Positions 1-35,600 of a stretch of 64,000 nt of DNA are shown piece after piece. The first letter of the stretch is position 1, and each line of letters begins with the position of its first letter. The stretch comes from Octopus sinensis (Eukaryota), in the NCBI RefSeq assembly GCF_006345805.1, contig NC_043009.1, positions 1,178,001 through 1,242,000 on the forward strand, given 5' to 3'. The translations under genes were made by a program, and so were the position numbers. The notes below the pieces were generated by a model. That model did no database searches and was not told where the DNA came from. It saw only the letters and a list, made by a program, of their open reading frames with translations.

Positions 1-91
1 ACATAGACACTCTCACCACAAATCTAGGGACTAAGTCATAACAAACATTCAGTATTGAAGCTGTTGAATCCTAAAGAGAATGATAAATTAC

Positions 92-4830: not shown

Positions 4831-4975
4831 GCTTCTAATATGAAACTAGCTATTCAATCCCAGTTACATGAACCATAAAGAAATTTAATTAACGAATGAA
4901 AATATATCACAAATCATTGAAAAAATAAAACTGTTTGTTAGATCATAGACTTGATAAGCACTTGAGAAACTTTGC

Positions 4976-4977
<2 letters not shown>

Positions 4978-5010
<33 letters not shown>

Positions 5011-5720: not shown

Positions 5721-5746
5721 TGAACAGAGTGTGTTAAGTGACTTAA

Positions 5747-5967
5747 CCCTTTTGATACCAGCCCGGCTGAAACTGGTTCTGACTCTATAGTACAAATGTC
5801 TTATTTTCATAAGTCCTGAATTAAAATCTTCCACCAAACCTTAGTCACAATTTAAGTTCCTAACACTAGCTTAATGATAACTAAGTTATTTTATTAAATT
5901 CTTTTTTATATTTAAAATAATTGAAAGAAACACAGAGCAGCTCAAAATAAATACGGTAGTGAAAGGG
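5747..5967. mobile_element. piggyBac-type MITE
   Basis: TTAA|CCCTTT...AAAGGG|TTAA; a related copy at 33235-33441 in opposite orientation. Confidence 0.8.
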
Positions 5968-6247
5968 TTAACTGAATACCACAAAATATTTTGCCTTTTG
6001 ATCAATACTCCCAACCCACCACAAACACCTTTGTCAATAGTACTGATACTATTACTTATTGGCTGACAACCCCGTCATATTTTGTGAGGAAGGGGCTAGG
6101 CATTTGGATTGAAGCATTCTGAATTAAGCCAAATATTATGGGCAAGTAACAAAGACAAAATAAACTGAAGACCAAAACATTTTCAAAAAGAAAATAGATG
6201 CAAAGATCATATTTGAGTGTGTGAGTGTTGAGTGGATAGCAACCTAC

Positions 6248-9166: not shown

Positions 9167-12100
9167 CTAGAAAAGAAGATACAAAATATACAATTGTAGT
9201 ATAATTTGTAAAATGAATTACAAAATACTTTTTTATAAATTCAGTTTAAAACAAATGGTGAAGAAGGAAAACGAGAGAGCAAAAGAGTAAATGCAGAATA
9301 CGTATTCAGTGAACCAGAAACATCAGTGTCAACTATCAGATGAATTCATAAAAGAATACCTCCTTTTACTGGTTCTAATCAATATCAGAAAAGTGTATAA
9401 AAAAAAAAAAGATAAGGAAGACAAAGTGATTGACTGACGACCAATGTTAACAACAAAGACACAATAATATATACAGAACAAATTCAACATCGGTACAGAA
9501 ACGGTACAAGATTTAAACGCTGCATAAATATGGAAATAAATACATTGGGAATTTCAAATGTTCTTTTTTTTTATTAATGTATTTACATTTGTTAATGTTA
9601 ATTAATTACACACACATAATGTAATTTTATGTGTGTGTGTGTGTGTGTGTGATAATTCTGGTATGGCTTTATCTGGCTGAGTGCATTACATTGTATTACC
9701 AGCACCAGAGTGATTGTCTACTATGGCTAAAGTATCCCTCTGCACTGTGTCAGCTTATATTTAGACTTACTGTTTTTCCAGCTGGATGCCTCACCACAAC
9801 ACTACTTGAGGGTAAGGTGTTCGCAGTGCAGAAATGTGAGGAAAGATGTGTGCTGAGGGATTTGTTTCTGGTTGGATGCTTTTAGATACAAATTTCTTTC
9901 TGGTTGGATGCTTTTAGATACAAATTTCTTTCTGGTTGGATGCTTTTAGATACAAATTTCTTTCTGGTTGGATGCTTTTAGATACAAATTTTTCAAAATA
10001 TCTTGAAGCAGATGGTGATTTGGGAGCCTGAATTAATATTCAGGATGAAACTCTTGTTTGGCCAGTATTTTAATTGTATCTATTTATAAATATAATTAAT
10101 TACATTACCATATGGTTTTTGAGCCAAACGCTATATCTTTGGGTACCTTTAATATTTTTACCCAAACATAATTCTCTATAATCTAGTATTTAAAAATCAA
10201 ACATTTGGTAACAGAAACACTAAACCTGAAAAGAGAAAGTGTTGTTAGATGTGAAAGAAGAATTGTCTGTTTCAGAAAATGATTGCTTCAAAAAGAAAAG
10301 AAAAAAGAAATACCCCCCCCCTCTCAATAAGCAAGAAAACATCGTTATCAGATTGGTACCATTTGATCTTGAGAAAATAACTCAAAAGGTATTGGTTGAT
10401 GTGAAGCACTGGTACAAGGTGCAACATGGTTGCACATCAAACCTAATCACACAGCCGTGCCTGCAGCTATATCCTGACACCTTTTTTTTCAGACACTGTA
10501 TCCTCGACTACATTATGATCCCATGCACCTTTTCTTTCTTTTTCTTTTCAAAGATGACAGAATGTGATTTAAGAAACTCAGCCACAATTTCCAGCACAAC
10601 AAGAGACCTAAAAGCTCCCCGTTATAGCAGTAGAAAGTGTTCTACGCATGAAACAAAAATATGCAATAATTACACATGGGGCCCTTCAGAATCATATTAG
10701 TGACCCTAATTTTAAAATAGAGGTTAAAATGAAAAATTCAGTATGTAAGAGAAACAACATTAGAAAAAACTTGAAAATGCTGGATTTTATTTATTTTAAA
10801 GTTCTTTATCTAGTGATCTGTTTTCACAATTTGATGCAATTCAAGTGCCATAGAGTCAATAGACATCTATGTAGTATAGCTAAAACATGAATAATGTTAT
10901 ATATATATATATATAAAGATCCTATTTGTAAATGTTTTTTTTGAGACAAACATTTTCAGATCAGTTGTGTTTGTGTGTACATGAAGATTATATATAAAGA
11001 CACAATGTAATGTTTTCTAATATTCTTTCATTTCTTCCAAACATGAGGGTGTATCAGTGACTAAGATGTGATGACAAATGGAGCATGCACGAAACATAAT
11101 GCTAACATGAAGCTACAATGACATTTCATACATTTTATGTTATGTGCAGTTGCTAAAAATCATTTTACACAGAAAGACAACAAGTAAAGCACATGAAAAT
11201 ACAATAAATAAATGATTAACAAAATAAAACAAAAAAAGGATGTTGGTTAAAACAGAAATGACACCAAAAGCTCAAGGGATGACCATGCCTTAAATATATG
11301 GAGGTTTGAGGGGTAATGGGATTGAAAGTGTATATGCATTCAGATTGGTGACTATTGAGGGAGAGAGAGAGAGAGAGAGAGAAAGTAGAGAAGAGATTGG
11401 AGCATAGTGATGAGTGATGAGTGATGGTTGAATATGTGGAACATTGCACAATGGTAAAAGTTGGTAAAATAACTTCCACATTGGAAAGGAATGCCAGCAG
11501 GCGTTTATAAACATTAGCTAAACAACAATGTAAGTGACATGGTGATGTTAATGACACCGACAGTAACAAGAACAATGGGTTAAGACGCAAAAGAGAGGAG
11601 GAGGAGGAGGAATGTTCTAGAACAGACACCTGACAACACTGGGGGAAGGTAGAAACACAGCACAAAAAAAGAAACAAGGGTTGATACATATGAGGTGTGG
11701 AGAGAAGCAGGTGAGAAAAGGACAGGGTATTAGGGGGGGGATGACACCACAAACAAGCAGGGTAAGCAAGAGGACGACAACGACGACGACGACGGGGTGA
11801 ATGGAGAAAGAAAAAAAAAGAATTCTTATTAGATATCTAAGAAGATTACATGAATGATAATTTGTAAAGGGACTGAGCAAAGTACTTTGTAGAAATTGGA
11901 AAACAGGGATTAGGAAACTAACTATACATGCCGAGATTCTATTTCTGAAGATGGTTATGAAACGTAGTAAGCAGATGAAGATGAAAAATGGGGCTCTAGC
12001 TAGAAATAAGGACACCCATGCACAGAGCTGTCAACATTTTTTTAAGTATTCAATTTAAAGACTGATTTATATTGGAGAACATGGAGGTAAATCCAAGCAA

Positions 12101-15100
12101 AATTTGCCCCCCTATTTAAAAGGTGTGAAACCCTTTAGCATTTAAACTGATCATATCCTGCCTAAATATTTTTCCTGTTTAGTGTTCAAACCAGTCAGAT
12201 CTTGCCTATCATACCTAACCTACAGTATCTTTCTATAAGTATACAATCACATCAATGAAATTTCAAAGCTGTGAGATAATGCCTGATTAATTCAAAACAA
12301 TGTGAATGAATAAGCAATAATCTGAATGCTAAAGGGCTAAATGTAGCTTAGAATAGATAGTTTGTGCGTGCGGGCCTACATGTGTTCGTATTATTAGTTT
12401 CAGCCGTTGAACTGAGTCCATGTTGGGGCACTGCCTTCAAGGAATAATCAATTAGAACAAATGCCAGCGCTTAGCAAGGACTTCGACCATGGAGGGATGA
12501 AACAAAGTGTGCTATCACAGGATTATTACCTTTGCCTTAGCGAAGGCAGAGGTATTGTTTTCAGTCATGTTTGTTTATTTGTTTGTCCGTAGACAAGATA
12601 TCTCAAGAACCACGAGATGGATTCAGATGGAACTTTCAGGGATGTTTGGCCTCGTGACTGGCATGGATTGATTAGATTTTGGGATTGATCCAGTACCTGA
12701 CAAGGATTCTGGATTATTTTTCCTGATTTTTTACTTAATTTTTGAGAGCTGTTGGGTTTATTTTTAGTATTCCCATTAGTGAGAACAGTCAAGTTTATTT
12801 AAGATATTCTCATTTTAAAATCATCTCTGGCCAATTGCTGAGAGGACGTTGGTGTTGCCTTGGCGGAGGTTTGCACTTTCTGAATGCTCTTATTATTATT
12901 ATCATTAAATATCTTCTGAAGTAGATTTGTTTAAAACAAAACTTAGAAAAAAAAAAAAGCTAGCTTATTGAAAGAGATTTAATTAGTGCCATGACAGGTC
13001 AAGTGACTATACAACTTCTTTCATTAGCTTATGAAGGTTTGTGTACATTTTTACCAAGGTCACAACCTATGATCCCGGTCATGACCATCCTGCCTTCTGC
13101 TTTTCTACCAGTGTATCCATGAGGCTATCCCATGTACTGTTTCCTTTTTAAGATGACAGATTTAAGAGAGATTTGCCTATTTCTTGCAGGTCAGGAGACT
13201 GCACAGAGGCATGTGAATTAATGGCTGAATATATAAAGATACGTAAATGTAGACCAAATGTAGGTTAGAATTGTGTAAAATTGGGAATATAATGTGTGTG
13301 TATCTAAGAAATCAGAACAGCTCCAGTTGAACAGCTCTGATATAGAAAAAATACACGAGATAGAGAGAGAGAGAGAGAAAGAACCGGGCCATGTTCTTAT
13401 TAGTAGACAAAGAGTAGATTGCAGATAAGTATTACAGGTTGGTGTTGGTAAACACCAACGACAGACAGAAGATGGCAAACCTTCTCTACCAATTCTTGTT
13501 CTTCGTCTAGAATAGGGGGTAACTTTGTCTTCATTTGCTCTGCCTGAGCATCAAATGTTGTCACCTTATCCTTGCCCTCACCTTCATCATCTGAGGAATC
13601 GGAGGAAGAGGAGGAGGAGGAACTGGATGAATGCTGTAAAGATGATGAGGTGATAAGAAGCATGAAGGTGCGTATAAAATGATGGCAACTAAAGTAGGAG
13701 TACAGTTGTTCTTAAAAACCAATGAATGAACTGCTAAGAAGATCACATTTGGGTGGGAGGGATGCTGGTTTGTCTGTGTTAGCTTGCAGTAAATGTTTTA
13801 TTTTCAAACTATAATAAACGTGTTTTAGAAAGTTTGGATGAGAGGAATGATAAATTTCGTCCTAGGTTTGATGTTTGTCCAAAGAAATGTAAAAAAAAAA
13901 AAAAATTAATTTTTTTTTTCCAGCAGATGATTTGCATCAAGTGTGAACGATGCAATATGAAAAAAATTGGAATAGAAATAGTCTGAAAAATTAACAAAGC
14001 TATCCTCACTTCTATAGATTTGTCTGCATCTATGTACATCGACACGTCTTTGTATATAAGTATATGTGTGTATGTATGTATTATGTGTGTGTACATGCAT
14101 ATTAGCATTATAAGTAAGTGTACGTGTGTATTTGTCAATATATCTATTAATTATGATGTGTGTATTTGTAACTATAGCAGATTAATTCATTTTTAAAACA
14201 AAATTAAACAAAATACAAGATTAAATACATAAAGAAAATTATGCAAACAAGAAAAAGTATAACCATAAACAAATAAAATTTAAAAAACAAAAAAATAAAC
14301 ATTAATAATAAAAAAACAATTTTTTTCAAAATAAATACAACAAAATACAAATTAAAAATTGATAAACAAAAACGTCTGATATATAACATGTTTTCTTTGA
14401 TGAGCATGCTTATATAGCAGGGAGAAGTAGAAGTGACAGCATGAAAATGTCCAAGCCGAAGCCTTAAAGGTAAAAGCCACTTCAGGTGGATTCAGGGGTG
14501 GTTGATTGGTTGCAATAACTGAAATACTAACAAAAATGACTCCAGTTCAAATCCCTGCAAAGTCACTGGGATACTTTTTAACTGTCTTACATCACACACA
14601 ATACATCCAGATTAAGCCATAAATCATAGTCACTAAACTAATTAGCTAAATAATAGATTTGGCTACAATAAATAATTGGTTTGGATCAACAATTATGAGA
14701 ATGTATTTAATATTAATAACAATTATAATAATTCTTTCTAATTTTGGTACAAAGCCTGCAATTTTAGGGAGAGGACACTAGCCCTGATTGCATTAACCCC
14801 AGTATGTAACTGGTACTTATTTTACTGAGGATGAAAGGCAAAGTTGACCTTGGTGGCATTTGAAATCAAAACCAAGAATCAGCTTGTTGCCTTAATAACA
14901 ACAACAATAATCCTTTCTACTATAAGCACAAGGCCTGAAATTTTGGGGGAGGGTGCTAGTCAATTATATCAACCCCAGTACGTAACTGGTACTTATTTCA
15001 TAGATCCCAAAAAGATGAAATGCAATACTGACCTCTGTGGAATTTGAACTCAGTATGTAAAGATAGGTAAAATGCCACTCAGTATTTTGCCCAGCGTGCA

Positions 15101-18100
15101 TATAATTCTGCCAGTTCACCACTGTAGTAGTAGCGGTTCTCGCTACTATAGGCACAAGGCCTGAAATTTCTGGGGAAGGGACCAGTTGATTCCATCGACC
15201 CCAGTCGAATGTAAAGAGCTGGCAGAAGTGCTAGTAGGCATTTTGTCTGGAATGCTAATGTGTTGCTGTTCTCTTACAATGTGGCAAAAAAAACTCCTCT
15301 GATTTCCAGGAAGGAGAAATACAAAAGTTGTGACATTCATGCCTTGGCCAAGTACATCTATTATCAAAGTGAAGTGATTCCAAATGAAAACCAGAAGTTG
15401 GGGTGTTTGAATTCCAATATTTTAAATCCAGGTTTGTCCCCGTTAAAAGGGGACACTCTTACAGCAACCACTCACACCATCTCGCCCCGGTTTTGGGTGC
15501 CCTCTTTCCTCAAGTCAACCCTCCCAATCTCCTCCTCCGCGTTTTCTTTGGTCGATCTCGCCTTCGTGGTTCATTCACTTTAAACTTTAGCACTTTCTTC
15601 AGAACATGATCCTCCACCCTCCTCAACACATGTCCATACCACCACCACTCCATTCACCCTTGCCAGCTGTCCCACCGATTCCTCCAACCCCCAGTATCTC
15701 CATCAAGTCCTTAGCCTTCCTTTTATCCAATAGTTTCACACCACACATTGCTCTCACCTGATACTTCAAATTGAAACTGGTATTTAGCTTTTGTTTCCTG
15801 ACAAGTTCTTATCGTCATCACTGACGTCTATTTTTCTCAAAAGTATTCGGCCAGAAGACCAACAGCTACATTTCCCCAGTTTGAAAACATGTACAAACAT
15901 AATTAAGATGAAACGAACATACTTGCTGCAATGCAAAAGTTACGTGAAACACAAAACAAACCAAAGGCAATCATAAAAAAAGGCAGAACGCAATGATTCA
16001 GTTGAACAAGGAAGAATAGTTAGTGAATGATGAATGATGTAAACACATTCCAAATGTCATTGTCTTCCCACAGCCATAATGACAATTATTATATATGGCA
16101 ACCAGTCTCAGCCTCTCCCTTATATCCCTAATGATGAGAGGGATTCAACCAGAAAGAGTTACTGAAAGGAACTCTGCAACAAGTCCCACACATTAGCTTA
16201 CACACACACACACACACAGACTGTCTGACACTGCATCATTAGAGACCCTCTCATCAGGTGAGAACAGGAGATGGATAGAAGCAAGGAAGGGTTGGCTGTG
16301 GGAATGTAGTGGGTGATAAAGAATGGTGATAAGTGCTAAGAAAATCTGAAACCGTGCAGGGAGGTGGGATTTGCAGATTTTACATAGTATGTGTGATTTA
16401 ATTTATAAGGGATTACTTCAAAGGAGAAAAAGAAAATTACTTCAGTTTTCTCATTAAGACTGTGAAAGTATATATAAAAAAAAAGAGGTTACTAGTTTAC
16501 AACATACGCATACACACACATTTAAGACTATGTATGTAGAACCACTGATGGCACTGATTACACACAAAGAAAGGTGTAGAGGCATCTACTTTCACTGCCT
16601 AAAGACATATGCTCAGAAGCCAACAGGAATTTAACAGACTATAATATTTACAACTAACAGGGGAGCATCTAAGAGATTGACTTGCTAGAGAATGTAGTAG
16701 CCAAAGTCCTCTCAAACGATGTCCTATTATCTTAAAAGGTTAATTTGGATAATAGGTCCAGATGCATTGTCTAGAGAATAGAACAAGATGGTCATAGGGT
16801 TGACTTAGGCCTGAACAACAAACACAAGTGTTGGTTCACTTCACAACTCTTCTCTGATTTCTTCAAAACACAGAATGGATGAAGTGCCATGATGTAACTG
16901 GTAAATCCATTTAGAAAAGCAATAAAACTCAATCAACCCCAACATCAAAAAATTGTCGATTGAGTTTTAAATGATTTTATGTCCTTTTTTGTTTTCTTTA
17001 TCACATTCTTTTGATTAGACATGAGCAATTACATAGTAATGGTATTTAGATTTAAACAGACCCAAGAGGGGGCAGTGGAATGCTTCACCCGTCCGCTTTT
17101 GTTTTCCTTTCTAGCACTGATTTCCTTGTACTTAGTACAAAGCCATAATTTGTAGAGCAGAGGGGGGTGTAATAAAATGTGGTGTATTAATGGTACTTAT
17201 CTTAGCAATCCTGAAGAACGAAAGCTAAGAGTCGTCAGGTGAGATTTGAACTTCAAAGGTACAAGATGGAAAGTGAATACCTTAAAACATTCAGTCAGGT
17301 TTGTTTGACAGCTTTTTTTATTTCTTTATTGCCCACAAGGGGCTAAACATAGAGGGGACAAACAAGGACAGAGACAAAGGGACTGGGTCAATTAGATTGA
17401 CCCCAATGCGTAACTAGTACTTAATTTATCGACCCTGAAAGGATGAAAGGCAAAGTCGACCTTGGCGGAATTTGAACTCAGAACGTAAGAGCAGACGAAA
17501 TACCACTACGCATTTCGCCCAGTGTGCTAACGTTTCTGCCAGCTTGCGCCTTATTCTTTTACAATTTTTGCTGTCTTGGTCGCCCTACTTCAGTAATCAA
17601 CATTAAAGCAATAGAGAGGGAAGTGTGAAAATTAGTACAAGGGAGGTAATTCTTACGTCAGGTTAATATAAATGATCAGAGAGGGTCAAACCACCAATCG
17701 CTTAAAAATTTATTAAAATAGAAGCCTTCTTTATTATGCTATAGATATAAGCTTTTAAGCTTGTATATTCAGAGCATAAATCTTTCAAGTTACAACTTCT
17801 ATAAATAAAGATTTTCCAGATTGCAGTATCAGAAAAGAAACAGAGATCTACAATTTCCAATCGATTTTATAAGCATTTTAATAAAAAAAAAAAAAAAAAA
17901 AAAAAGCTTTTGCACATAGAAGCTAATGAAGCCAAATCGGACAGAAGTCTTGCCTAAATATATATTGGTATAATAATAACATGACTATTGTAACGTTTTA
18001 TTTTCATATTTGAATGTTCAGAATAAAACACTGCCCTCAAGATGAAGAAACTATAACAGGTCTATAGAGAAGCCATCCCATCCCTCCATTATTATTTATT

Positions 18101-21100
18101 ATCACAGGGTTAGCATATCGCTGGTCCTCTTCTAGAGATAAATCCACTAATGGACTTGTAGAAATCCAGTGATCATCCTTGAAGAGGTTGCTACGAAGCA
18201 GCTATTACGGAGAAAGGCTGGGTGCCTGCATTACTCAACTCCCTGGAATATAAAAGGAAAATCTTAACAGGGTTAGCACTAAACTTTGGCACTGACAGAT
18301 AAAGCACTCGGATTCAAAGAAACCATTAGTGGTCTGAGCTGACAAACCTCCATACAACAAAGTTGCAAAATAGAATGAGTTTGTCATGAAACATTACACA
18401 GTATCAAGTGTAGTGTCTTAAACAAAAACAGATAAATTTGGATTCAAGGCACCTTAGTTATTTTTGTTCAATTTTCTTAAAAGCTTCCGCCCTATGTGGA
18501 ATAACTGGCAATGCATTTCACGAAATATTCAGTCATCTGTGCAAAATCCCAGATAACAAGATAGCAGGACATAGTGATGGGGCCGCAATATCAAACTACA
18601 TCTTAACGAAAAATGATGGCTGCAACCAACAGTGACTCAGTACAGATATAGTAAAGAAAACTACTATTGGGATATATCTTAAAAATATGTACTTCTGTCA
18701 GAGCTGGGATGGGTATGTTGAAAATCTGAACTATATATATATATATGTAAAATCTCCAATAAATTGCAAGCCAGTTTTGAGTTGGATATGCAGTTACAAG
18801 TATAACTGGATATTACTGAATCACAAACTGATATTTGTAGAAAGGAATGTGTGAAAGCTTATTAGGAAATGTAACTTGACAGGGACAATGAAACATGAAA
18901 TGGAAACAGACAGCAAAAACTAGCAGGAAGCAACAGCAGCCCTTTTTCTTTTTCTTCTTTTCTTTCTGAAGCTGTATACAAGCAGAAATAACAACAGCAA
19001 TAACTGGAAGAAAACACACGAAAAAGCAAGAATTTGATAAGAATTCTTATAATGTTGATAAGTCCATCAAGTAGCAGAGACAAACTGGATGTCATAGCAG
19101 TGCACTTCAGATTGGACTAATCCAAACAGCCCCACCACTTTTCTTCTTCAGATCAATTACTAATACACATGACCATCACACGCAACAACTTTTAAGTAAA
19201 AGCAAAATAGTGAATAAAAAGATTTATCAAAATTCAAAGAAAGATGTTCTTTCCTTTTAGTCTACAATCAGGTTGTAAAATCATAGGAATGTTATAAAAA
19301 CTGGAATAAAATCTCAAGAAAGTTAGCTCAACCAAAAGTACTGATCTAGTTTTATAATATTAGTAGTGATTTATTGTTGAGGAATGAAATAAGTTTGGCC
19401 GGGATTCAATCAAAATAACTAGGGCAGTGTATTACTGCCCTTAATTTTATTGAATGGGGAGTGGGGTGGGCTGAAAAAAAAATGAAGTTTGAGATTTGAA
19501 ATCAAAGACAAGACAGTGCACTATTCCTACAAACTCACTAAACCTCCCATTTTATTCTTTAACATTATTACTAAGACTAACAATTTTCCTGCATCACATT
19601 CAGTTTAAGACATTTCAGTGACTCATCAGGCAGTCTTTACAAAAATCTGAAAGTAGTGCACTACCATGGTTTAGTAACGATGGTTAAAATAAAACCTTCC
19701 ATGCTGGAATGGGTTGGATGGTTTGACAGGAGCTGACCAGGCAGAAGACTGCACCAGACTTCTGTGTCTGTTTTGGCAAGGCTTTTATGGCTAGATGCCC
19801 TTCCTAACACAAAGAAGTGTTATTTTTTATGCAGGTCTCTAAAATGGATCAGGTATTTTAGATAATTTTGAATAACTTTTTTAGAGATATGAAATATATT
19901 TATTTTCAAATTTTCTATAGGATTTTGTTTTTATATTATCTTTCTATCAAAAAAGTCAAATTATTTTAAAAACCATAATTTTATCTTAACATCATCTGGT
20001 TTAAAAGAGAAAAATAAAACTGCTTTTTATGAACAAAATTAAAACTGTTACCTATCTTGAATATTATACAAAAATACTGTAAACATGGAACAGCACTTAA
20101 TATATTAAAATATATATTTGAACTGCTTTTAATATCGTTCATAAAAAGTGCTTGGAATAATAATAATAATAATAATAATAATCCTTTCTGCTAAGGCCTG
20201 AAATTTGGGGGAGTAGAGGGGACTGGTTGATTACATCCACCCCAGTGTTTCACTGATATTTAATTTATTGACCTCAAAAGGATGAAAGGCAAAGTCAACC
20301 TTGGTGAAATTTCAACTCACAACATAGCATCAGGTGAAATAACACTAAGCATTTTATCCGGCACGCTAACGATTCTGCTAGTTCGCCACCTTATTAATCC
20401 TAATAATAATAAAAAATTTTAAACTGACCGTGCAGGCAATCATTTAAAACCATAAAACCTCAGAATGCACTTGTTAGACAACAAAGTGATAATTGTGAAC
20501 CTGGAAGGCAAAGATGCCTTGAAATATACCCTGGTGAGGTGAGGAAAATATTAGCCAAAAAGCATCATTCAAAGAACAGAACAAATGGGAAGATTGCAGT
20601 TCGAAAGATAAACATGATAAATGGATTAAAGCAAAAACAGGGATTAGATTCTGCATCATCTACAACTGCTGAAAATGCAGCAGAGCATGCTGAACAAACA
20701 GAAATGTCTGTTGTCACCTTTTCGGATCTCTTTTTAAAAGGATTTCGCATAGGACACATAAGTCCAGATGATGACCTATGGACGCTCTTCTGTAAGACCA
20801 TGGAGATATTATATATACACAGATATATATATGTAAATGTTTTATATATATATACAAACACACGCCATATAAAAATAGTCTAAGGATGTAATAATTAATA
20901 AACTGAATACCTAATTTGAAACATAAGTTTCATTAAAAATCTGAGTCAAAATTGATGGAGACAGCTTGACAAATAATTACTGATGCATAGTTTACAAGTT
21001 AAAAGTTGTAAAGAATTCATTCAAAAATGGATTTTATGAATCTTAAAATATAAGTGAAAGATATGTGTGTAAATTTTACAGTTAAATACCACACTTAATT

Positions 21101-24100
21101 TTTGAAACTTATGACTATATTAAAAATGAAGTTAAAAAGAAAAATCTATAATAAAAAAACAAAACAAAACAAAAATATTTGGTATATTTTGTAAAAACAA
21201 AATTGCAGTTAAAATATAGATGGAAGAGTAAGTAGTAAACACACAGAAACTTGGAAGTTAGCGAAAGCTATCTAAGAGAAACTTTTCAAGCCATATTCTT
21301 ATTAACAGTTCCTAAACGAACTTCAAAAGCAAAAAATATTACAAATTATACAGTCACACTAGCAAAATTAATTATAAGTTTTGAAACTGTTGCTTGATCA
21401 ATTCTTAAAGCACAATCAGAAAAACAAATTACATTAACTCAATTCGTAACAACAAAATCTGTCCATCAGTTATTTTTCAACCAATTTTATTCCGGCTGTA
21501 ACTTAACCCTTTGCCATTTAAGCTGATCATATCTTGCCCAAATATTCAACTGTTTTTACACTCAAACTAACCAGATCCAGCCTCTCCACCTACTCTACAA
21601 TGTCATTCTAAAAACAACAATTACATCATCGTTAGATTTTGAAACCATCGGATAATGCATGATTAATTCAAAACAACATGAATAAATAAACATTAAATTT
21701 GATAGAATAATTTGAACGTTAAAGGGTTCAAATTCTAATTCAGCATGAACAAGATACGAAAAAATCTTGCATCTATAAAGAGATGACACCAAACTTTGAG
21801 AATATCAAAAAGGACTTAAGTTTTATGTCCTGCTCTTGCAAATGCACCTTCCAGCTATTCTAACCCTTATTTTAATTGTGATATATCTCTATATGGCTTA
21901 CCTTCCAAATTTTGCTTTTTAACTCAATAACACAGGTGATAGATTGAGCGGGATGGATGAATTTTGAAAATTTCATCTTTAGCATATGAAAGCATTTGAG
22001 ATAACGAAATGTCAACTTATGGACCAAAGTTGGTAGTTCAGTTACATTAATCTCATAAATGTTATTCCTTTAAAATGTGCTTAGTTATATTCAGAGAGGG
22101 CTTTTTTCCTACAAATAACTAGAACAAAAACGATTGCAGCATGGAAGCCATTTAAAAACACACAAAAATCGTTAGATTCATTTCAACATTTAAATTTAAT
22201 TTGTCAAAATATTTTTGTCACTCTGAAATTGCAACCTGTTCACTGACAAAATTCTGTGCTCTAATTTTGGGCCAGTAGGGGCAGTGGGTACCAGCAACTT
22301 CAGGTTGATTAAATAAAGTACTTTGTACATATTTTATTGAACCCAAAAAGATGATCTTGATGGGATTTGAACTCATAATGTAAAGGGCTGGAACAAATAC
22401 TGCAAAATATTTTCCTGACATTCTAACAATTCTGCCAAGCCTCTGCCTTTAGCAGAATTATAAAATTATAATAATAAGGGGAAACTACATTTTCGTCTGA
22501 ATGAAGTGCTTCCATTTCTGTTTCGAGATACTCAAAGAAAAGAATTGTGTTAATAGCTTCCAAATTTAATTTAGGGCTTCAGCTAATAACCAATTTTCTA
22601 AATCAGTATTCAACATGTGATCTAAACTGATATTTGTGTTACATAAGTTATTCAGGTCTTTCTTAGCCTAAAGATTTATAATTAAAATATATATATATAT
22701 ATTACAATAATGATTCTTGTCTCAAAGACATTAGCGATCACTTGGTTAGGTGAAATATTTATAATGAAAAATTGGAATCAGATATCAGATTAAACTGGTG
22801 ATCTTGGTGCCACTACAATTGCCAATGATGTGAAATGTTAATCCAAGCTCAAGTGACATTCAGTAAAATCAGTTGTAATATATTCCAGCATTTATTACGG
22901 ATATATTATTGATAATAAATAAACAGCGAAATTAATCCCTAAAGAATTTTTAAAATGCAGAACTATGAGTCAGCAAAGTTAAACACAAACTATTGAGGAT
23001 TAGCTTTCTGACTTTGAATCAACAATCTTTATCCCAACACGTTTTCCTTCCCATCTTGAAACTTCTCAAAATGCAAACAATCAAGTATTAAAAAGCCAAA
23101 AAGATTAGCCAAAACAGACAGATTAACAACAGAGACACATACAGGAAAATAAATCTATAGCATACTTAATTAACTCAATGTCTTCATTCCGTTTTAAGAC
23201 TAAAGTACAAAACCAACTTTGCTGGAATTCTGTTTGGTCCAGTTTTCTAGTTTCATTTAACTTTCTACTTTCATTGTAGAGTTGTTACAATGAAGTTGTT
23301 GATTAAAGGTTAAATCAACCTGAAGACCAAACTGCCGGTGCAACATGGTCACTAAAAGTTTTTTTTCCTTCCATTGTCGGTGAAATACAATTTAGATTGC
23401 AATGTTTTCCTATTTAAAAACTATAGAAATATCTACAAAACATTTCACTAACACAAGAAATTACTGGTAGGTATTTCAATATTAAACTATTTCATAAATT
23501 AATGAACACATTTAAATGATGTACAACCATCTTTAGCAACTTATAATCATGTGCAATAATATCATCTAAAAATTAAGACCATCAACACCAATGAATTAGG
23601 ACTACTGGGGGCTACCATCAACTTAAGAAACACAACAGAGCACCAGGATTTTTTCTTACGTCTACTCTACAAAAAGTAATTACAAGCTGAGTTTTAATAT
23701 CAATGTGTTCTTAAATAACAATGCTGAAATTTTACTTTTGCAAACATTAAACTAAAAGATATACACTAAAACTATTCAAACACCATGCATATCATCATCA
23801 ACATCCTAATCATTATAATAATAATTATGGTTAGTAATAATGAGAACAAGAAATAAAGTACTAAAACAAATATACAAAAATTTATAAGTGTTAGAGACAG
23901 TATAATCTAAACAGAATCCGAGCCAGAAACAAAACTAATTATTTAAGAATTAATATCGGCTAAAACCACATCTGTTAACACTTCGTAAAACGAACTACAA
24001 ACATATTTATCCAAACACTGAATAGTTTCCTTCTAGAATAATGCTTTAAGAACGACTCAACTTGAGTAGCTATGCACTGTTGAACAGTAGTAGAGATAAA

Positions 24101-27100
24101 TTTCGGTTGTGACTATGACAACAGAGTTCTTTTCAATGGCCATAAGAATGAGTTATAAACGATCGATAGAGAAATTTCTTAAAGGAACAAAAACTGCTAA
24201 GTTAAACAGAAGACAAGAACGGAAGCCATGAAGCGGAGACTGAAAACAAGAGCAGATAACAGAGAGAGAGAGACGGAAGGGTAAAACGTTTTAATTTCGA
24301 AAATCTCTTCAACACAACAGAATTAACTGGCACAAGTCTTGAAGAGAAATTAATTGTTCTCAGCTGAGAATCAAAGTCCAGCCATGAAGAAATTTCTTTT
24401 AAAGAGAAAATATTTTGCCAAGAAAAGACATAAGTGAGCCTAAGAAACATATCCAACAATAATTTTCTCTATTTTTGTAATTCTAATTAATGAGCTACAA
24501 TAAGGATGAGCAAATCAAATAAAATCACCCTAAAACAAAACAAAGCAAAACAAAAAACAAAAAAGACCTTTTTGGACTCTTTCTTGATACTCTCAGTGTC
24601 TGAGACATCTACCTCCACAGATTCCACTTCCTGTTGTAATAATACAGGGGAGTTAGAAAATTTTGTATAAAAAAATTAACATAAAAAAACCCCCAACTGT
24701 TTATGTCAATTTATCAGGTTTTAAATGAGAAATAAAAACCCTCAAGTTTGTTTGGTCCATATTCGTCATCAGTTTTGTCTTTTAATAAAAATTTATTTTC
24801 AAAATTAGCAAAGTTCTTTTTTTTCTCTGGTTTCATTTAATATCTTATTAAAAGTTAAGGTGATGGTAGTTGTCTGAGAAATACAGGTATGAATTTGGTC
24901 ATTTGTTTAGAAATTATGTAAAATTATATGAGAATGACTTGTATTGGAGCTTTACTTGCTGTATTGCTAGTGAGTATTTCATCGATCTTTTTCTAAAAGA
25001 GTAATAAGAAAATTGACTTCGTTAGATTTGCTGCTTCTCACTCTAGAAAGTTGAGCAGGAACCCAGTGATAGAGAAATGATTAAAACGAGTACTGAAGAC
25101 GACAACTTGTGCCATGAAGCTGCCTGAAAACAAAGGCAGATAACTGAGACAGACTGAACGGTAAAACTTTCCAGCTTAGAAAATCTCTCCAACAGAACAG
25201 AATTTAACCGGTACAGGTCTTGACGAGTAATTAATTTATCAATGGTTCTCAGTTCAGAATTAAAACAGGTGTCAATTTAAAGGAGTTTTGAGTTTTTTTT
25301 CTTAAAGTGAATATCTTTTGCCAACAAAAAAGGCCTGAGATATAGTTAAGTCAGCCTAAGAAACAGAGCCAATAATTTTTTCTGTCCTCTTAATCCATCT
25401 CCTACAGTTAAGATCAGCCAGAGAACAAATCGAATAAAATCACTCAACAACAAAAACAGAAAAAGACCTTTTCGGGTTCTTTCTTCTTGGTTTCCGTAAC
25501 TTCTACCTCCACTTTTTTCACTTCAACTTCCTGTTGCAATTATAGAGGGGAGTTAGAAAACTTTGTTAAATAACAACTAGAAAATTTTTAAATAATATCA
25601 TCACAAAACTCCAACTGTTTATATCAATTTATCTAGTTTTAAGTGAAAAACAAAAAGCTTCAAATCCTTTTAATACATTCCCTTTGTCATTTTTACACTT
25701 TAATAAAACTTCATTAAAATTTATTTAAAAAAAAAGAAGCTATTTTTTTTGTTTTTGTTTCATTCAATGTCTCATTAAAATGCAGATTATGAGATTTGTC
25801 TGCGAACTATAAGCATACATTTGATTGACTTTTGAAACTAAAATTGACTTAGATTTGCTGCTTCTCACTCTAGAAAGTTGAGCAGGAACCCAGTGATAGA
25901 GAAATGATTAAAACGAGTACTGAAGACGACAACTTGTGCCATGAAGCTGCCTGAAAACAAAGGCAGATAACTGAGACAGACTGAACGGTAAAACTTTCCA
26001 GCTTAGAAAATCTCTCCAACAGAACAGAATTTAACCAGTACAGGTCTTGACGAGTAATTAATTTATCAATGATCCTCAGTTCAGAATTAAAACAGGTGTC
26101 AATTTAAAGGGTTTTTTTTTGAAAGAGAAGATCTTTTGCCAACAAAAATGGCTTGGGATATACATATTAAGTCAGCCTAAGAAACAGCCAATAATTTTTT
26201 TCAGTATTTTTGTAATTTCAATTTATCTACTAGAATAAAGATCAGCATGCCACAGAGCAAATCGAATAAAATCACTCAACAACAAAAGCAGAAAAAGACC
26301 TTTTCGGGTTCTTTCTTCTTGGTTTCCGTAATTTCTACCTCCACTTTTTTCACTTCAACTTCCTGTCACAGAAAATTTTATTAAATAATATCATCACAAA
26401 ACTCCAGTTGTTTATATCAATTTATCTCATTTTAAGGGAATAATAAAAAGCCTTAAATCCTTTTAATCCATTCCCTTCATCATTTATACATTTTAATAAA
26501 ACTTCATTAAAATTTATTAAAAATAAAAGCCCTTTTTTAAAATTTCATTTAATGTCTCATTAAACTTCAGATTATGGGAGTTGTCTGCAAACTATAAGCA
26601 TAGGTTTTATCAGTTGCTTACTATATTACTAGTAAATATTTGATTGACTTTTAAAAATAAAAGTGAAAAGAAAATTGACTTAGATTTGCTGCTCTAGAAA
26701 CTTGAGCAGAAAGCCAATGATAGAGAAATGATTAAAACGAGTACTGAAGACGACAACTTGTGCCATGAAGCTGCCTGAAAACAAAGGCAGATAACTGAGA
26801 CAGACTGAAGGGTAAAACTTTCCAGCTTAGAAAATCTCTCCAACAGAACAGAATGTAACCGGTACAGGTCTTGAAGAGAAATTTATTAATCAATTAATTA
26901 ATTGTTCTCAACTGAGAATCAAAACAGGTGTCAATCTGAAGAAATTTCTTTCCAAGGGAAAATATTTTGTCATTAGAAAAGAGCTTAGATATACATATTA
27001 GTTAAGTGAGCCTAAGAAACAGAGCCAATAATTTTTTTCAGTATTTTTGTAATTTCAATTTATCTACTAGAATAAAGATCAGCATGCCACAGAGCAAATC

Positions 27101-29632
27101 GAATAAAATCACCCAACAAAACAAAAACAGAAAAAGACCTTTTCCGGTTCTTTCTTCTCAGTTTCCGTAACTTCTACCTCCACTGTTTTCACTTCAACTT
27201 CCTGTTGCAATTATACAGGGGAGTTAGAAAATTTTATGTTAAAAAACCCCAAAAGACACAAATTCAATCCATCCCTTTCATCATTATCATTTTTATCTCT
27301 CTTCCTTAACATTTTCATAGACAGAATAGAAACCAGTCGTCTTCAATATATCTTGCTCCCACATCGGCTTCAGTGCTTGTAGAACTGGAGAGCATTCCTA
27401 CATGTTCTACTGACTGCAGATCCCAATGTGCGGAGGTTTTATTGTTTCAGAAGAGGTAGACAAGTACGTAAAAAAATGCACACATACACACACACATATA
27501 TATATACATACATAGTCACATATGCACACACACACACACACACACAAAATACATATATAACCTCATTTGCATGCATGCATCCATACATACATATTTAAAG
27601 CGTTAAAGTTTGGATTAATGATAGAGGACACAATTGTATCTGGAGAACGACATAAACCTGCTAAACAAGCAGTTTTATGTCAGAGGGTATGACCAGGCGT
27701 TTAAGTGAATATTTGTTTCTCTTCAATACAGGCCTGTAATTTAAGACATCTGATGCTGTCTTGTCAATAAACTGTATCCTGATCACAATGAAAACACAAC
27801 ACATAATAAATGAATACAAGTTTTGATTTTCCAAACACACACACACATATTGAAGGCATAGAAGTATCTGAAATTAAAATTTTTTTAAATATAAATTACT
27901 GAATTATATAATAAATTAAAATATACTCTATAGTTAAATTACATAGGAATAAAAAATGTTCATTTATCAACAAGAATCTTTAATTATTGATACACAGAAA
28001 ACATTGTACTTTCCTGAAACAGTAATATTAGTAACAATACAAAGTGAAAGAGATCAATAGATTTCAACAATTCCTCAATACCACAAACCAAAGCAAAGAC
28101 AGAAAAAAGAAATGTCATGCAAAAAGTAAAGGATTTCCAGCTCAGAGTATAACAATATGTCTTTGAGAAGAGGAATAAGAAATGTATTAAAGCAAAATGA
28201 AGTGAAGAGTGTGAAATAGCCTCATCATCCTCATCTATTGTTTAAAAAAAATATTCTTTTCCTTGTTTCAGCCATTGGACTGTTGCCATGCTGGGGCACC
28301 AGTTTGATGAGTTCAGTCAATCTAATCAACCCCAGTTCTTATTCTAAGTTTGGTATTTATACTGTTGGTCTCTTTTTGTTGAACCACTGAGTTACAGGAA
28401 TGTAAACAAACCAATACTGGTTGTAAAGTTTTGAAAGACAAGTACACACATGGTGAGCTTTTGTGCAGTTTCTGGCTATCAAAGCCACTCACAAAGCATT
28501 GGTCAACCTGGGGGGGGGGGGGGCGCCCACAGTAGAAAACATTTGCTTAAAATGTTGTGCCATGGGACTTAATGCAAAATCACATGTTTGTAAAGTGAAC
28601 ATTTCGACAATACAGCCATGCCTACCGCTAGAAGACACCCAAAGTGCTGCACACTGGGCCTATAAAAATTACTGGAAAGAAAATTGTGGAGAAAGGGGCT
28701 AAAATAAATGCTCTTTGACACCCTTACATCTATGAACCTGTAATTCAGTTTTCAGCATTGGTCTTGACAGAATTTGCTGTGAAATATGTTTGGATTATCC
28801 TCACTGTCATTGTTTTAGCATCCAGTTTTCCAGTTGCTTGGGTCAGATGGAATTTATTGAGTTGGATTTTCTACAGCTGGATGCTCTTCCTATCGCCAAA
28901 CCCTTACTTGATTCCCAACTTGGAATACAACTGGATAATTTCACTTGCATTTCATTTAGTTTTTCTCTGCACCCCATCCACAGTATTATACTATTTAGAG
29001 GCCATGTTAATGGTAGGAATAAGTAACCATTGAATGGATTATAAGAGCTTGTTGGTGTGTTTTTCTAATTGTAAGGTACCAGGTAACTAACTGGGAGGTT
29101 ACAAGTTCAGATCTTGTCAGAGACATGGCATTGTGACAACCATCAAGTTACTTAACACTCAACACCTGAAGACATCTTGCTCAGAATGTAACTTAGGAAA
29201 AAAATGGCCCTGGGACTCAAGTTGCGTGTTTTCTCCGAAGGCTGGGAAAAAGAAGAACTCATCTAAAACAGAGAAGAAATTTTCGGCAGAGAAAATAGAT
29301 TTTTTACCAGATGCATTCCTTAGTCTGACGCAGGCAGAATGTTATTTTCAATTTTATATAATTGTGATTAGCTACATTAAATTTAAAGGATATCTTCATC
29401 AGTAATTAAAAAAAAATTGAACTGGGATAAAAGAGAATGAGGAAAATGATTGTTAGAATAGGGGAAAAAAGCTGCAAGTTAGTAAAGAACCATAAGGATC
29501 ATTAGTATGTAATGTAGGAGAGGGAAAAGAAGAAATAGGTTAGACGTGAAGAGGACAGAAGTTGAAAATCAACCAGCAGAGAAGAAGAGGAGTGGATTGA
29601 AAAACCGTGCCACGATATTGAAATTGAGACAG

Positions 29633-29684
<52 letters not shown>

Positions 29685-32600
29685 TGTGTACAAGACAATA
29701 GATGAGATAATGGAAAGAACTCTTGCAAAAACTAAGGAAAGCTTAAGTTGCAGCTTTCAGTACTAGTGTTAGTGACTAATAGAAAGACACTAAATGATTA
29801 GTTCACCAAATAGATTGGAACTGGGAATAATAAATTAGTGGATAATAAATTGACATTTATGTACAGGTATATATGTATATGTACACATGAGTAAGCATAA
29901 ATATACAGGTATATGCACACATAATTCACGGTTGCCATTTAGTGAAGGAAAACTAGAGGCAGAGTGGTTGTTTAGTAGAGAACCCAAAAGTTAGAGAGAT
30001 CAAATGCAATGTAAGTGACAAATTAGAAACCTGAGTCATTTCTTTTTCAGTTGGAGATGCAGGAGGTGTTTTGCCCTTATCTTTATCTTTTGGATGTTTT
30101 CTAAATTTGCCAAATAAGCCAAGTCTTCCTTTCTCTTTTCCCTGGAGTATTTATAAAAATGGACAGAGTGAGAGTAGGAAATACAATGAAAGGAGATGAA
30201 ATGGTGAGAGAACAGGACTATTTCGCTTGTAGTCTTCAGATTTATTTTATTGACCCTGAAAGGATTAAAAAACAAAGTCAACCTTGATGGCATTTGAACT
30301 CAGAATGTTAAGTTGGAAGTAATGCTGCTAAGCATTTTTTCCAGCACAGTAACAATTCTGCCAGCTTGTCACCTCAAAACTTCTTGGTGTCATAAATGTC
30401 CATTTAGACCTTGTCAGATAAGCTGTGGCTTGATCTGGAGGTAGAGCAATTTAGAGAGGAAGCAAAATGGGGAAAAAAAAAGAAAAAAATGTTTTGAAAT
30501 TGTACTTATCTAACAAGTGTTTTGATAAATGTCTGTGTATTGAAGGTGAAGTGAGTATATCATTGAAGAAGCATTTTAGCCATGTAAAAATCCACATGAG
30601 CTGTGGCCTGGTCACAGTTTTACTGCAACCGTTTGAAAGTTTGCTAATAGCCAGTTTTTTTCATAGAACCCATCTTTGCTTGCTTTCATGATGATAAAGA
30701 CATGAGTATTCATGCTGACCGATCTTGGTCTCTTGATAGTAGCCGTCACTAGTTACTTGGTACTTGCATCAGTAAATTTCACCAGATTCCAGTGTATACT
30801 GCATATACACACATGAGAAGCAACATGTACAGTAGGTGAAAATTTTGCTGGGGATATACTAGCTTCAATGGTACTAAAGTGGTCGAGAAACATATTTCCC
30901 ATCCAAGAACAAAGCGGCAGTCCTTCAAACATTTTATTTCAAGCACACTCTCTCTTATAATGTCATCTTTATATTATATCAGAAGAGAGTTTGTTTTTTT
31001 TTGTATTTATGAAGCATAACTGTTGTTAAATGAAGGCTCCAGAGGAATGACTGCTAGTGCCAGGGAGGCAGCACAAGTAAATCCAAATTCAAACAAAACC
31101 TTCATCAATTGAGCTAAAATCTGCCAACAGCGTGTCTTCATGGTATCTATGAGTGAATCAGTAATTCAACAATTCTGTGGCTGTTATTAACTTTATCAGA
31201 AGCTTATTATGTTTATTATTGTATAAGTAGTTAATATACACAAATAGCAGCTACTATAATCTATATACATGTGAATTAGCTACTAACCTCATAACGACCA
31301 GCTAAGACTGGCCCTTCAATGTTTTTTTTTAATAGTTAGGGTTAGTGTTACGATTAGATTAGAGAATGGATGTTCAGTGATGATAGAACAACTTTGATAT
31401 ATCAATTTTGGGTTTGTTACTGAATGACAAATACTCAAGGATTTGTTGATACAGAGAACAGCAATTACAATAAACCAGGACATAAAAATGTTTTGCAAAA
31501 GTGTTTCAGGGTCAGTGCAGTTATAAAGATCTTTCTTTTTTTTTTGGCTCACAGAAATAGACAAAATACCAAAAATATGTTGCCAGAAATATTTTTTTGC
31601 CAATGGTGCTGCAACCCAAATAAATTAATGGCTGTGATGATGGACAGCCAGTGCACCTGAATTTTATCAGAAACAACATTTTTCTTCCAAATGGTAAATG
31701 TTTATAAATATAATTCAACATCATCCTCATTGTTCTTACATCTGTTTTTTCCATGCTGGCATGAATGAGATGAAACTTATTGACATAGCATTCTACAGTC
31801 AGATCCTTTTCCGGTCACCAGACTGACCCTATTTTCAATGAAGTTATTTTTATTCCACTGTTCTTCAGAGGCCAAGCTCTTAGGGGGCACACTGTGTATG
31901 AGGGACATACACATGACAAGTCATTTAAATGGTGTTGAGTAAAGGCACATGGAAAGGAAGCATTTATATTCAGGACAGGTTTTTCTACATTTTCTCACAA
32001 TCAATTTTACTCAAAAAGGCATTAGCTCGGCCCAAGCTGCTCAAGGTGTCATCCAGTGGGATGGAACTCAAAACCATGTGATTACAAAATGAACTCTGAA
32101 TCCATGCAGCCATGCCTACACCAGCAATAAGAATCATTTGCTTTATCTGAATGACCACTTATCTGTGACCACTGGTCAGCTGGTCTGATTATTTTTTTTT
32201 AAACAGAGAAAGTGGATGGGCTTTCATCAGCTTTAACCCATGATAACGAAACTTGTAATTAAATTACACTAAGTCTCGATTAATTTCGAAAAATAATCAA
32301 AAGTTTGGAGGAACTTAGTACAATAACTGTTTTCACACATTGGAATATCTCAAACTGGTGACTGAAACCTAAAAGATTCTGACATACTATTAGGATGGAA
32401 GATGTAAATGTAATTACAAGCACTTCTAAAACAGTTAGGTTTTTATATTAGGGAATTCTTAAGTGGTCTAAGGTGGTTTGGTATAAAAAGGAGTTAAATG
32501 GAAGAGGAGTATTTAAAGAGAATTGAATAACATTTGTGACCCTTTTGCTTTTAGTCTTCAGCATCTCTAACAACTCTGTGTAAACATTACCAACCTTCTC

Positions 32601-35600
32601 TTTCTCAGCAGCAACTTCAGGTTCTTCCTGAGGTTTCTGTCCATTCTTAAGGTTGTTACTCTGCAAAAATACAATAATTTTGAAGTGAAAATACAATATC
32701 GTGAAATTTTGTTTTAAATTAAAAAAAAAAGTTTAAAAAAAAAATATTGTTTGAAAAAAAGTTAATTGTAAGCTGCTGTCTTGAATCAATCCAATAACGG
32801 TGGAACTTCAATAACGAACTGTTGTCAATAGAGTGTACTAAGTGCTTTTAACATGGCACATTTTGTCTGTCTTTTCAAGAATGCCAAACTACAAGATGTA
32901 AGGTGGATGGGAGACATAAACATGACAACCCAGTCACTTAAATAGTATCAGGCAAAACCACAAAGTAAACACTCTTGCACACATCTTTTATCCTTTTCAC
33001 GTTGACCAGTCCAAGTGCTCAAAGTAGCCATTATGGGAATGGATAAATTTGATAATATCGAAACAAAAACTGGTTTTGGACTCTAAAGTAATCCACAAAT
33101 TGCTTATCCATACAAATGTTTTCTTCATCTTTCAGTCCTAAATTAACCAGAAAGTTATTTTTTTATATTGTGTTTAATATGAGGAATTTGAGATGAAACT
33201 TTTTGCTAACAACAGCTGGCTGGTAACCCTTTAACCCTTTTGTTACCATATTTCTGTTGAGATACTCTGTTTCTTTCAATTAATTTTAAACATAACAGAG
33301 AAATTAGTAAAATAACGAAGCGAGGGTTAGGAACATAAATTGTGACAGGTTTGGTGGAAGATTTTAATTCAGAACTTTTGAAAACAAGACAGTTGTACTA
33401 CAGGGCCAGAGCCAGTTTCAGCTGGGTCAGTATTGAAAGGGTTAAGCAGATAAAGTGTTTGGGATCCACTAATTTTGATATGAACAGGGATGGCTGAGTG
33501 ATTAAGAAGCTTGCTTTACAACCATGTGATTTTGGGTTCAGTCCTATCGTGCAGCAACAAAGGCAAGTGTCTTCTACTACAGTCCCGAACCAATCAATGC
33601 TTTGCAAGTGAATTTGGTAGATGGAAACTGTGTGGAAGCCCACTGAGTGCATGTGTGTGTGTCTTAGTGTTTGAGTTTGTCCACCATCCGCCACACAAAC
33701 AGTGTTGGTTTGTTTATGTCCTTATAGCAGTTTGGTAAAAGAGTCTGACAGAATAAGTACCAAAAAAAAAAAAAGATACTTGGGCTGATTTGTTCAACTA
33801 AACTTTGGGAGGCAATGCCCCAGCATGGCCACAGTCCAGTAGCTGAAATAAGTAAAGGAAAGAATAACTAGTTGATAACATTATCAGTGGTTATAATGAA
33901 CAGCTTGCTCTGTGTCTGAATCTCAATCAACGCAGAAAAGAATATATATTGTTGAAAGAGATTAGTGATTTTATCCACCTGGTGGTGGGTCGAAAGATTA
34001 GCCTGACTGTCCACTAAAACTTATAGGGATCCAATGGGAAGTGTGTTATGGTCATCACTACTAATTTTCTAATTGCTAACACAATGGGACACAGTACTGA
34101 CTTATACCGTGTGTCTACAAGTCATTAATATCTATGTACCAATGAAAAATATGCTATTTACTCACAGTTTCAAGGTCTGCTGCAACTGGTTTAACTGCAT
34201 CAGCCCTGATTACTGAATCATCATCAGTCTATAACGGAAATAGAAATAATTTAACATCCAATATTTTCATTTCTCTTTTATATTTCTCCTCCAATAAATT
34301 CTCTCTCAAAGGAGATGAAGTCATAAACAAAGCACAAAATACAAAATGGAATTCATTTAAAATAATCTAGTTTTAAATTCACAATCTGGTAATTTCAAAT
34401 TCATAATCTTTAGCATTAGTATACGTTGTGGAATGTAGAATTTTACAGACCTTTATTTTTTTTTTACAGAATAATGGTTGATATTGACAGTTAAAAATTT
34501 TTGATAAATGCCCGAGGGACAACTGCCCATAATCGGGGAGCACTTGGAGTCAGCAGAAACAGAAGTGATCGATAACTGCAATGGTGTGACATCCATGCAC
34601 ACAAACAAACCTACAGAATTCAGGATACTCAAATAGGTATCATATTAAGATTTGTCATCCATCTGTGTTGATATCCTAATAAAATGATTTAATAAGACAT
34701 TTTCATTATTAAAACAATTAGAAAAAAAAAAAAAGTTTGGTTGATGAGGTTTCTCAGTAGATGCACCACTAGTACATGAAAACAAAAAAAAAAACCAACA
34801 AAAAACTCATGGAAAATTATATATCTCTTCATGTCTATCAAGCTATTTCAATTTATATATCCCAAACAATTATCAATCTCAAACAAACCCTATAATGCCA
34901 GAAATATTGATGCTTTTACTAATATTACAAGAGTTCAAGACAATTAGTTTATTGTAACAACAAACTGTAGTTTTATAGTTAAAATGTCTAATAACTAATT
35001 CACGGTAAAAGCAACAGGAATAATTTTTTTTTAAGCCACAATGCTTCAGATTTTAGTAACAAAAAATTAGAACAGGTAGTATTTATATTTCTAAACTAAT
35101 TTTGAAGGTTGGATAGAGAGGAAACACAGAAATGGATGCTATCTCTAAGTCCATACAATATATGAGCTATATATATTAAAAAAGAAAAAAAAAAGGAAAG
35201 TGTTACAAGTGCTTTGAACATTTGCATTAGTGCTTCAAGTGCGATAAAATGAATGTTTTAAAATCTATCTTTGGCAAGCATATTAGTAACAAGCAATAAA
35301 TAAACAAAAAGTCTATCATTTAAAATTAAAGTAAAAAGGGAAAAAAAATGAGAAAAGAACATTGAGAATATTTTGACTGATGTGAAACGAATATTTAATG
35401 CAAGATAAATATTTATAAACACAAATACAAAACAAAAACAAAACGCGGAAAAAAAAAAGAACTACGTATATCTGAAAATACACACAGAACTTATGTCAGA
35501 AGAAATAACTGGGTCACTGGGACAATAGATATAAAAGAAAGTTTTTGACAGAGGGCCTCAAAATCAAATCTGCTCGGTCGAGTCTACCTGTTAACTACAA

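Follow-up and report, generated by a model that had tools for sequence, protein, structure and literature searches.

The stretch of DNA analysed here (the window) comprises 64,000 nucleotides (nt) of Octopus sinensis, positions 1,178,001 to 1,242,000 of contig NC_043009.1, and carries in its protein 4.1/Coracle gene an array of four tandem copies (c1 to c4) of one 63-nt exon. All four copies lie on the minus strand; coordinates are whole-window positions, read 5' to 3' of the minus strand, and are collected in Table 1. An original prediction, made from the sequence alone, had described four tandem 63-nt exons with CAG and GTCTTT borders together with their peptides, and all of these are present, on the minus strand. 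The copies are real and unannotated in the one octopus model found (P0001). In our judgement it is fairly probable that the array consists of four copies of one phase-0 exon in the variable region of the host gene, that c4 is likely spliced, that at least one model omits the block and that the copies are likely additive.

The array and its host gene

The host of the array is the octopus protein 4.1/Coracle gene. Pfam searches on single exons returned FERM_C (1e-16) and FERM_M (2.5e-5), the start of the FERM domain being unmapped in the window. With the FA exon as query, 90 of 103 candidates matched; the informatively named ones are 4.1, coracle or FERM proteins, and the matches carry PF08736, while the FA exon itself, scanned together with its intron flanks, gave no match to Pfam FA. 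The best match of this exon, P0013 (760 amino acids, aa), contains FERM_N/M/C, FA and 4_1_CTD, with no SAB, and is colinear with the window exons from 53750 to 6248. The 4.1 C-terminal domain (CTD) was not found in positions 1-6300 of the window and is present in this colinear homolog; that of the host gene likely lies beyond the window. The array accordingly sits in the variable region, downstream of FA and upstream of the C-terminal domain. The 18 mapped exons form a single frame with 0 stops, which encodes 1621 aa, or 1537 aa if the copies are left out, and every exon from 37544 onward is in phase 0 with a length that is a multiple of three. One neighbouring exon of this region (34228-34166, minus strand) is also 63 nt long and in phase 0; its sequence is unrelated to the copies and it is present in P0001.

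P0001 (XP_036355969.1) is a predicted RefSeq model of O. sinensis, 270 aa long and named 'glutamic acid-rich protein-like', which matches exon 41152-40917 at 100%. In it, exon eA is followed directly by the giant exon eG (9166), so that exon eB, the array and exon eC are all left out. Since this model omits the array, the copies are probably cassettes: they are skipped here with the frame kept, which is open with or without them. Residues 239-270 of P0001 show a frame shift relative to the window early in the giant exon, after which the model ends; this frame shift may explain the annotation of the gene as a short fragment. The present mapping corrects a fragmented annotation, the one octopus model found being a 270-aa piece that omits the array.

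Each of the four tandem units measures about 830-900 nt and consists, on the minus strand, of CAG, 63 nt and GTCTTT with flanking intron. The introns between copies are 776 (c1-c2), 769 (c2-c3) and 837 nt (c3-c4) long. Over the 430 nt 3' of each exon, c2 and c3 are 94% identical, c1 is 89-91% identical to both, and c4 is 77-85% identical to the others, a similarity between units far above chance expectation. As flank identity is lowest for c4, this copy was the first to split off. Among the exons of c1, c2 and c3, pairwise differences amount to 1-5 nt, with 4 nt separating c1 from c3 and 1 nt separating c2 from c3. The CTAAC motif at -26, which had been reported for the diverged fourth copy, is found in c1, c3 and c4 and is gone from c2 through a 17-nt deletion that leaves a TTAAT at -22.

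The encoded peptides show an alternation of Glu and Val followed by a Lys/Glu cluster, with net charges of -4, -1, -1 and -3 in the four copies. Their content of Pro, Glu, Val and Lys is 86-90% in c1-c3 and 62% in c4, with 0-1 proline per 21-aa copy. Judged from this composition, the peptide may act as a disordered spacer or, given the alternation, as a beta-strand-prone motif. No Pfam family matched any of the four peptides at E<=10, a search whose sensitivity is limited by 21-aa queries.

Further sequence elements accompany the array. A GCATG follows c1 and c2, and neither of the other copies, at a distance of 50-52 nt. Two acceptor-like intronic motifs, TTTCTTAG/GCT and TTGTTTTCAG/ (the slash marking the boundary), are invariant in 4/4 units, at about 24350-24450 and 24230-24250 and their homologs (minus strand); no conserved donor was noted behind either motif. 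Contigs of sequencing runs X1 and X5 over 25819-26330 have letters in common that fit no single copy of the window. The array may vary between individuals, by gene conversion or copy number.

Table 1. Array, host-gene exons and informative contig ends, in whole-window coordinates
Feature	Position	Strand	Evidence or remarks
Tandem units (exon and flanking intron), n=4	24150..27300		ends approximate
Cassette exon copy c1, 63 nt, phase 0	27201-27139	minus	CTAAC at -26; donor GTCTTT, then U-rich tract
Cassette exon copy c2, 63 nt	26362-26300	minus	1 nt different from c3; CTAAC branch motif deleted; possibly decaying
Cassette exon copy c3, 63 nt	25530-25468	minus	sequence
Cassette exon copy c4, 63 nt, most diverged	24630-24568	minus	contig ends 24597 and 24603; codon-position signature
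FERM and FA exons of host gene	53749-42375	minus	Pfam FERM_M, FERM_C; band 4.1/coracle matches; colinear with P0013
Variable-region exons, n=3	41152-40917, 37544-37308, 34228-34166	minus	P0001 match 99-100%
Exon eA, 66 nt, phase 0	32660-32595	minus	donor GTTGGT; in P0001; positive control of contig-end test
Upstream alternative exon eB, 111 nt, phase 0	30141-30031	minus	donor GTTTCT; eA-eB joint; skipped in P0001
Candidate downstream alternative exon eC, 153 nt, Ser/Asp/Glu-rich	13633-13481	minus	donor GTTTGC; sequence only; skipped in P0001
Giant exon eG, 2919 nt, YGPDG-type repeats	9166-6248	minus	both ends match P0001/P0013
Contig end, eA donor	32623		control; eA junction listed directly in X6
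Contig end, eB donor	30060		run X8; fits eB followed by an exon whose first base is not G (array skipped)
Contig end, c4 donor	24597		run X1
Contig end, c4 acceptor	24603		run X8; fits upstream exon ending AG but not CAG; AAG = eA or a copy
Contig end, inferred	26328		fits c1-c3-type donor joined to an exon starting with G, i.e. another copy

Contig ends and coding constraint

Contigs from four of the 24 listed sequencing runs (X1, X5, X6 and X8, with three species labels) were placed on positions 13201-33200, at a likeness of 90 and a share of 1. The resulting table of joints is dominated by matches to short interspersed nuclear elements (SINEs) and other repeats; one true splice, eA-eB (30140/32594, CT..AC, run X6), stands among the 15 listed of its 844 joints. 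Logan contigs derive from a 31-mer graph (PMC12424806, partial text) and, therefore, a contig that runs into an intron must stop at a computable base within the exon where spliced molecules exist. Branch positions were predicted in this way for eight exons and compared with the 53 true record ends contained in the 32 listed pieces, out of about 49,000. Four of the 53 ends fall on predicted branch positions, against 0.03 expected (P 3e-8), and four of the five listed ends that lie within exons are exact. Inside the array, 2/12 record ends fit (P 4e-4), or 3/16 when four ends inferred from the difference table are added (P 9e-6).

The last copy of the array, c4, has no 31-mer in common with the other window copies, so that paralogy is no explanation of its contig ends. 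Its donor and acceptor ends, together with the control at eA, indirectly support the use of c4, which is likely spliced into mRNA. A shorter use of this exon through an internal in-frame donor (GAG/GTAGA, giving a 24-nt or 18-nt microexon) is disfavoured, since the ends at 24597 and 24603 require full-length c4. The inferred end at 26328 hints at copy-to-copy joining; here a contig carrying c1-like letters stops at a copy-to-copy branch position, which lends weaker support to c1. A contig of run X8, which has another species label and differs by about 6%, covers 24603-25136, including c4 and the upstream repeat block; at least two units would therefore be older than that species split. The two ends of run X8 at the eB donor and the c4 acceptor jointly fit eB not joining the copies, in this one run. 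This hints at a possible choice between eB and the array.

The divergence of c4 from c1 is of a coding type. Aligned without gaps, both exons differ at 27/63 positions, and at 12/57 once two compensating in-frame 6-nt indels are allowed, gaps that a codon-blind aligner finds as well. None of these 12 substitutions falls on codon position 2 (0/12; P 0.002 in neutral simulation), and the amino-acid changes are mostly T/S and E/D. This codon-position signal between c4 and c1 indicates constraint on the c1 lineage since the two copies separated. Both indels of the c4 exon measure 6 nt; among those of the flanking pairwise alignments, which are not independent, 8/39 are multiples of three. The fourth copy had been said to keep exact length, frame and both splice sites; this is so, with the correction that the two indels compensate each other and that the invariance of the sites is weak evidence. 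As proof, splice-site invariance was rejected, an intronic 13-nt run being as invariant as the 13-nt run at the donor. The idea of a recently expanded cassette cluster is borne out by the coding signature, the c4 contig ends at splice branches and the skipping in P0001.

Several observations weigh against the reading of the copies as spliced, additive cassettes. The four runs are only presumed to be RNA, they were seen as contigs and not as reads, and the contig-end test was designed post hoc, after the table had been viewed. No joint at any copy stands among the 15 of 844 joints viewed, which is not evidence of absence, and the copy peptides occur in none of the 102 proteins compared (P0001, repeat proteins, fragments and 4.1-like proteins). 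The end at 26328 was derived from 'from_end' values; the contig concerned fits c1 and c4 equally (5/8 letters), and this end is preceded by the A of a TTACG, where a single-nucleotide variant or an A-to-I edit could yield the same end. A further inferred end at 24615, the start of an X1 contig, lies within c4 yet off every predicted position, and neither c2 nor c3 has splicing support of its own. As for the coding signature, a BLOSUM test of the c4-c1 changes fell short of significance (P 0.07) and only 2-3 of the nine changed codons are synonymous.

Donor sites, proposed additive inclusion and competing readings

The copy donor GTCTTT fits U1 at 6/11 positions, and neighbouring donors at 5-7. 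It had been described as weak, which agrees with this count; it is, however, no outlier here, its neighbours being GTTGGT, GTTTCT and GTTTGC and eA-eB being spliced. A pyrimidine at donor +3 characterizes seven consecutive exons, namely eA, eB, c1-c4 and eC (donors at 32594, 30030, 27138-24567 and 13480, minus strand), the other 11 mapped exons having a purine. This run of donors suggests one co-regulated block. Moreover, the U fraction over +3 to +32 is 0.63-0.77 in the four copies versus 0.23-0.53 in the 14 other exons, the copies being the highest of all 18. Across metazoans, weak donors are assisted through TIA and U1C by pyrimidine tracts that lie behind them (PMC2766253, partial text). 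The donor of the copies could be rescued in a similar, TIA/U1C-type manner by the U-rich tract behind it, and such a rescue could lead to regulated inclusion of the copies.

Included copies would likely follow each other in series, every one of them lengthening the protein by a 21-residue Glu/Val/Lys spacer of predicted disorder, and c2 would be fading after the loss of its branch motif. As a consequence of inclusion, the copies might alter the spacing of a cortical adaptor, or its charge- or phosphorylation-dependent binding. Tuning of linker length by the copies, as the original prediction had proposed, is plausible. Through the copies, the protein likely gains or loses short charged spacers between its two conserved ends, by an ordinary kind of alternative splicing.

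Among the competing readings, it is conceivable, though we regard it as unlikely, that only c4 (perhaps with one of c1 and c3) is functional and that the younger copies came along with a neutral duplication of intron sequence and are now silent or in decay. Both firm contig ends belong to c4, c2 is without the branch motif, the 1-5 differences among c1-c3 are too few to reveal selection among them, and letters private to X1 and X5 suggest that the array differs in haplotype between individuals. On the other hand, c1 and c3 retain branch motif, acceptor, donor and U tract, the end at 26328 lies at a c1-c3-type donor, and the c1 lineage bears the codon-position constraint described above.

More doubtful is a mutually exclusive use, with one copy per mRNA, by which differently charged versions of the 21-residue motif would be exchanged. 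In invertebrates, mutually exclusive splicing usually acts on homologous exons of equal length arranged in tandem, whereas most tandem duplicated exons become constitutive (PMC8373072, partial text). The end at 24603 is compatible with eA spliced straight to c4, but that at 26328, the weaker of the two, points to copy-to-copy joining. Steric exclusion is ruled out by inter-copy introns of 769-837 nt, and double inclusion preserves the frame, all copies being in phase 0 and multiples of three. With regard to RNA pairing, positions 29745-29771 can form a duplex of -21.9 kcal/mol with a sequence that recurs unchanged upstream of c2, c3 and c4; however, when inter-copy intron is paired with upstream intron, the best duplex (-27.8) is equalled by 10/40 shuffles and 4/11 control segments, and a docking/selector pairing at this site was rejected as no better than chance. 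No device of mutual exclusion, whether steric, by frame or by RNA pairing, was found in the array and surrounding introns. We therefore favour, to a moderate degree, additive over exclusive inclusion, and hold the mutually exclusive option of the original prediction to be the less likely one.

That none of the copies is spliced, the contig ends being chance or allelic branches at pseudo-exons, is very improbable: the modest U1 fit of the donor and the lack of a copy among the joints viewed and proteins compared would suit it, but exact ends occur at both c4 borders in two runs with two species labels and with a working control, the codon-position signature of c4 and c1 speaks against pseudo-exons, and neighbouring exons with equally odd donors (eA-eB) are spliced.

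Comparison with known systems and the giant exon

As in the protein 4.1 family (EPB41/band 4.1-like proteins and Drosophila Coracle), the octopus gene combines FERM, FA, a variable low-complexity region and then the CTD (the latter in the homolog P0013), with many short in-frame exons; it differs in the fourfold amplification of a single cassette together with the introns and in that no SAB domain was found. In 4.1R, the U2/U3 region between FA and CTD is variably spliced and exon 16 contributes 21 aa of the spectrin-actin binding domain (PMC10887211, partial text). The octopus copies share with this exon the gene family, the 21-aa length and, probably, the cassette behaviour; in contrast, 4.1R has a single such exon and the octopus four, with no sign of homology. 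The analogy with exon 16 had been drawn in advance and turns out to be nearer than claimed, as the host itself belongs to the 4.1 family; the SAB Pfam model, however, matched neither the four copy peptides nor P0013 at E<=10, again within the sensitivity of 21-aa queries, and the shared length of 63 nt is therefore a coincidence. Protein searches returned, besides the one octopus model, seven insect or unnamed repeat proteins, three fragments and 90 4.1-like proteins. Two proteins of this type, P0016 and P0017 (a chiton 4.1-like protein and another 4.1 protein), have their own, different tandem repeats between FA and CTD; given such repeats in other lophotrochozoan 4.1-like proteins, expansion in that region is recurrent.

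Titin PEVK arrays consist of short duplicated Glu/Val/Lys-rich exons, a trait that the octopus array shares, its copies being likely additive; the phase-0 label attached to the titin exons is doubtful. The predicted likeness to titin holds for composition and fails in the details: there are 0-1 prolines per 21 aa, no PPAK match, four copies only (84 aa in total), and the host is a membrane-cortex adaptor. It would be bolder, and we think it rather unlikely, to see here a dial of zero to four graded 21-residue cassettes behind a non-consensus U-rich donor, stepped by tissue in a copy-number-variable array beside a 973-residue YGPDG repeat exon, that is, an independently arisen titin-style linker in a cell-junction adaptor.

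Tandem exon duplication is well described, with exon-plus-intron units and equal exon length (PMC8373072, partial text). Mutually exclusive clusters of the Dscam1 type share this layout with the octopus array, which differs from them in having no exclusion device found and in that its whole block can be skipped. The array is a new, lineage-limited instance of tandem exon duplication within a known variable region. A literature search, subscription papers being beyond its reach, found no publication on these exons; 'band 4.1' has 0 occurrences in the v4 text of the SPLASH paper (PMC9258296) and none in two supplements, as far as these were accessible, and the accessible part of PMC2132682 holds nothing bearing on them. 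The array offers a compact natural series on the fate of duplicated exons (additive, exclusive or dead), with an old constrained copy, two intact young ones and one without the branch motif, all behind a common donor with pyrimidines at +3 to +6. Knowledge of splicing or of 4.1 proteins stays unchanged unless graded, tissue-specific inclusion is demonstrated.

Regarding other features of the window, a metagenome scan with eC gave 596 pattern matches and 0 confirmed ones. The giant exon eG, arguably stranger than the array itself, is stop-free and contains three 265-aa macro-repeats, 80-81% identical, made of 7-residue YGPDG-type units (76 motif matches). Its counterpart in P0013 is only a short peptide that matches both ends of eG. 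The YGPDG repeat gave no usable match in the ESM Atlas; repeats resembling it occur in long insect proteins. Elsewhere in the window, tandem repeats comprise a 32-nt minisatellite (4.1 copies, 99%) and 72/87-nt repeats, the regions concerned being 9860-9991 and 63531-63884.

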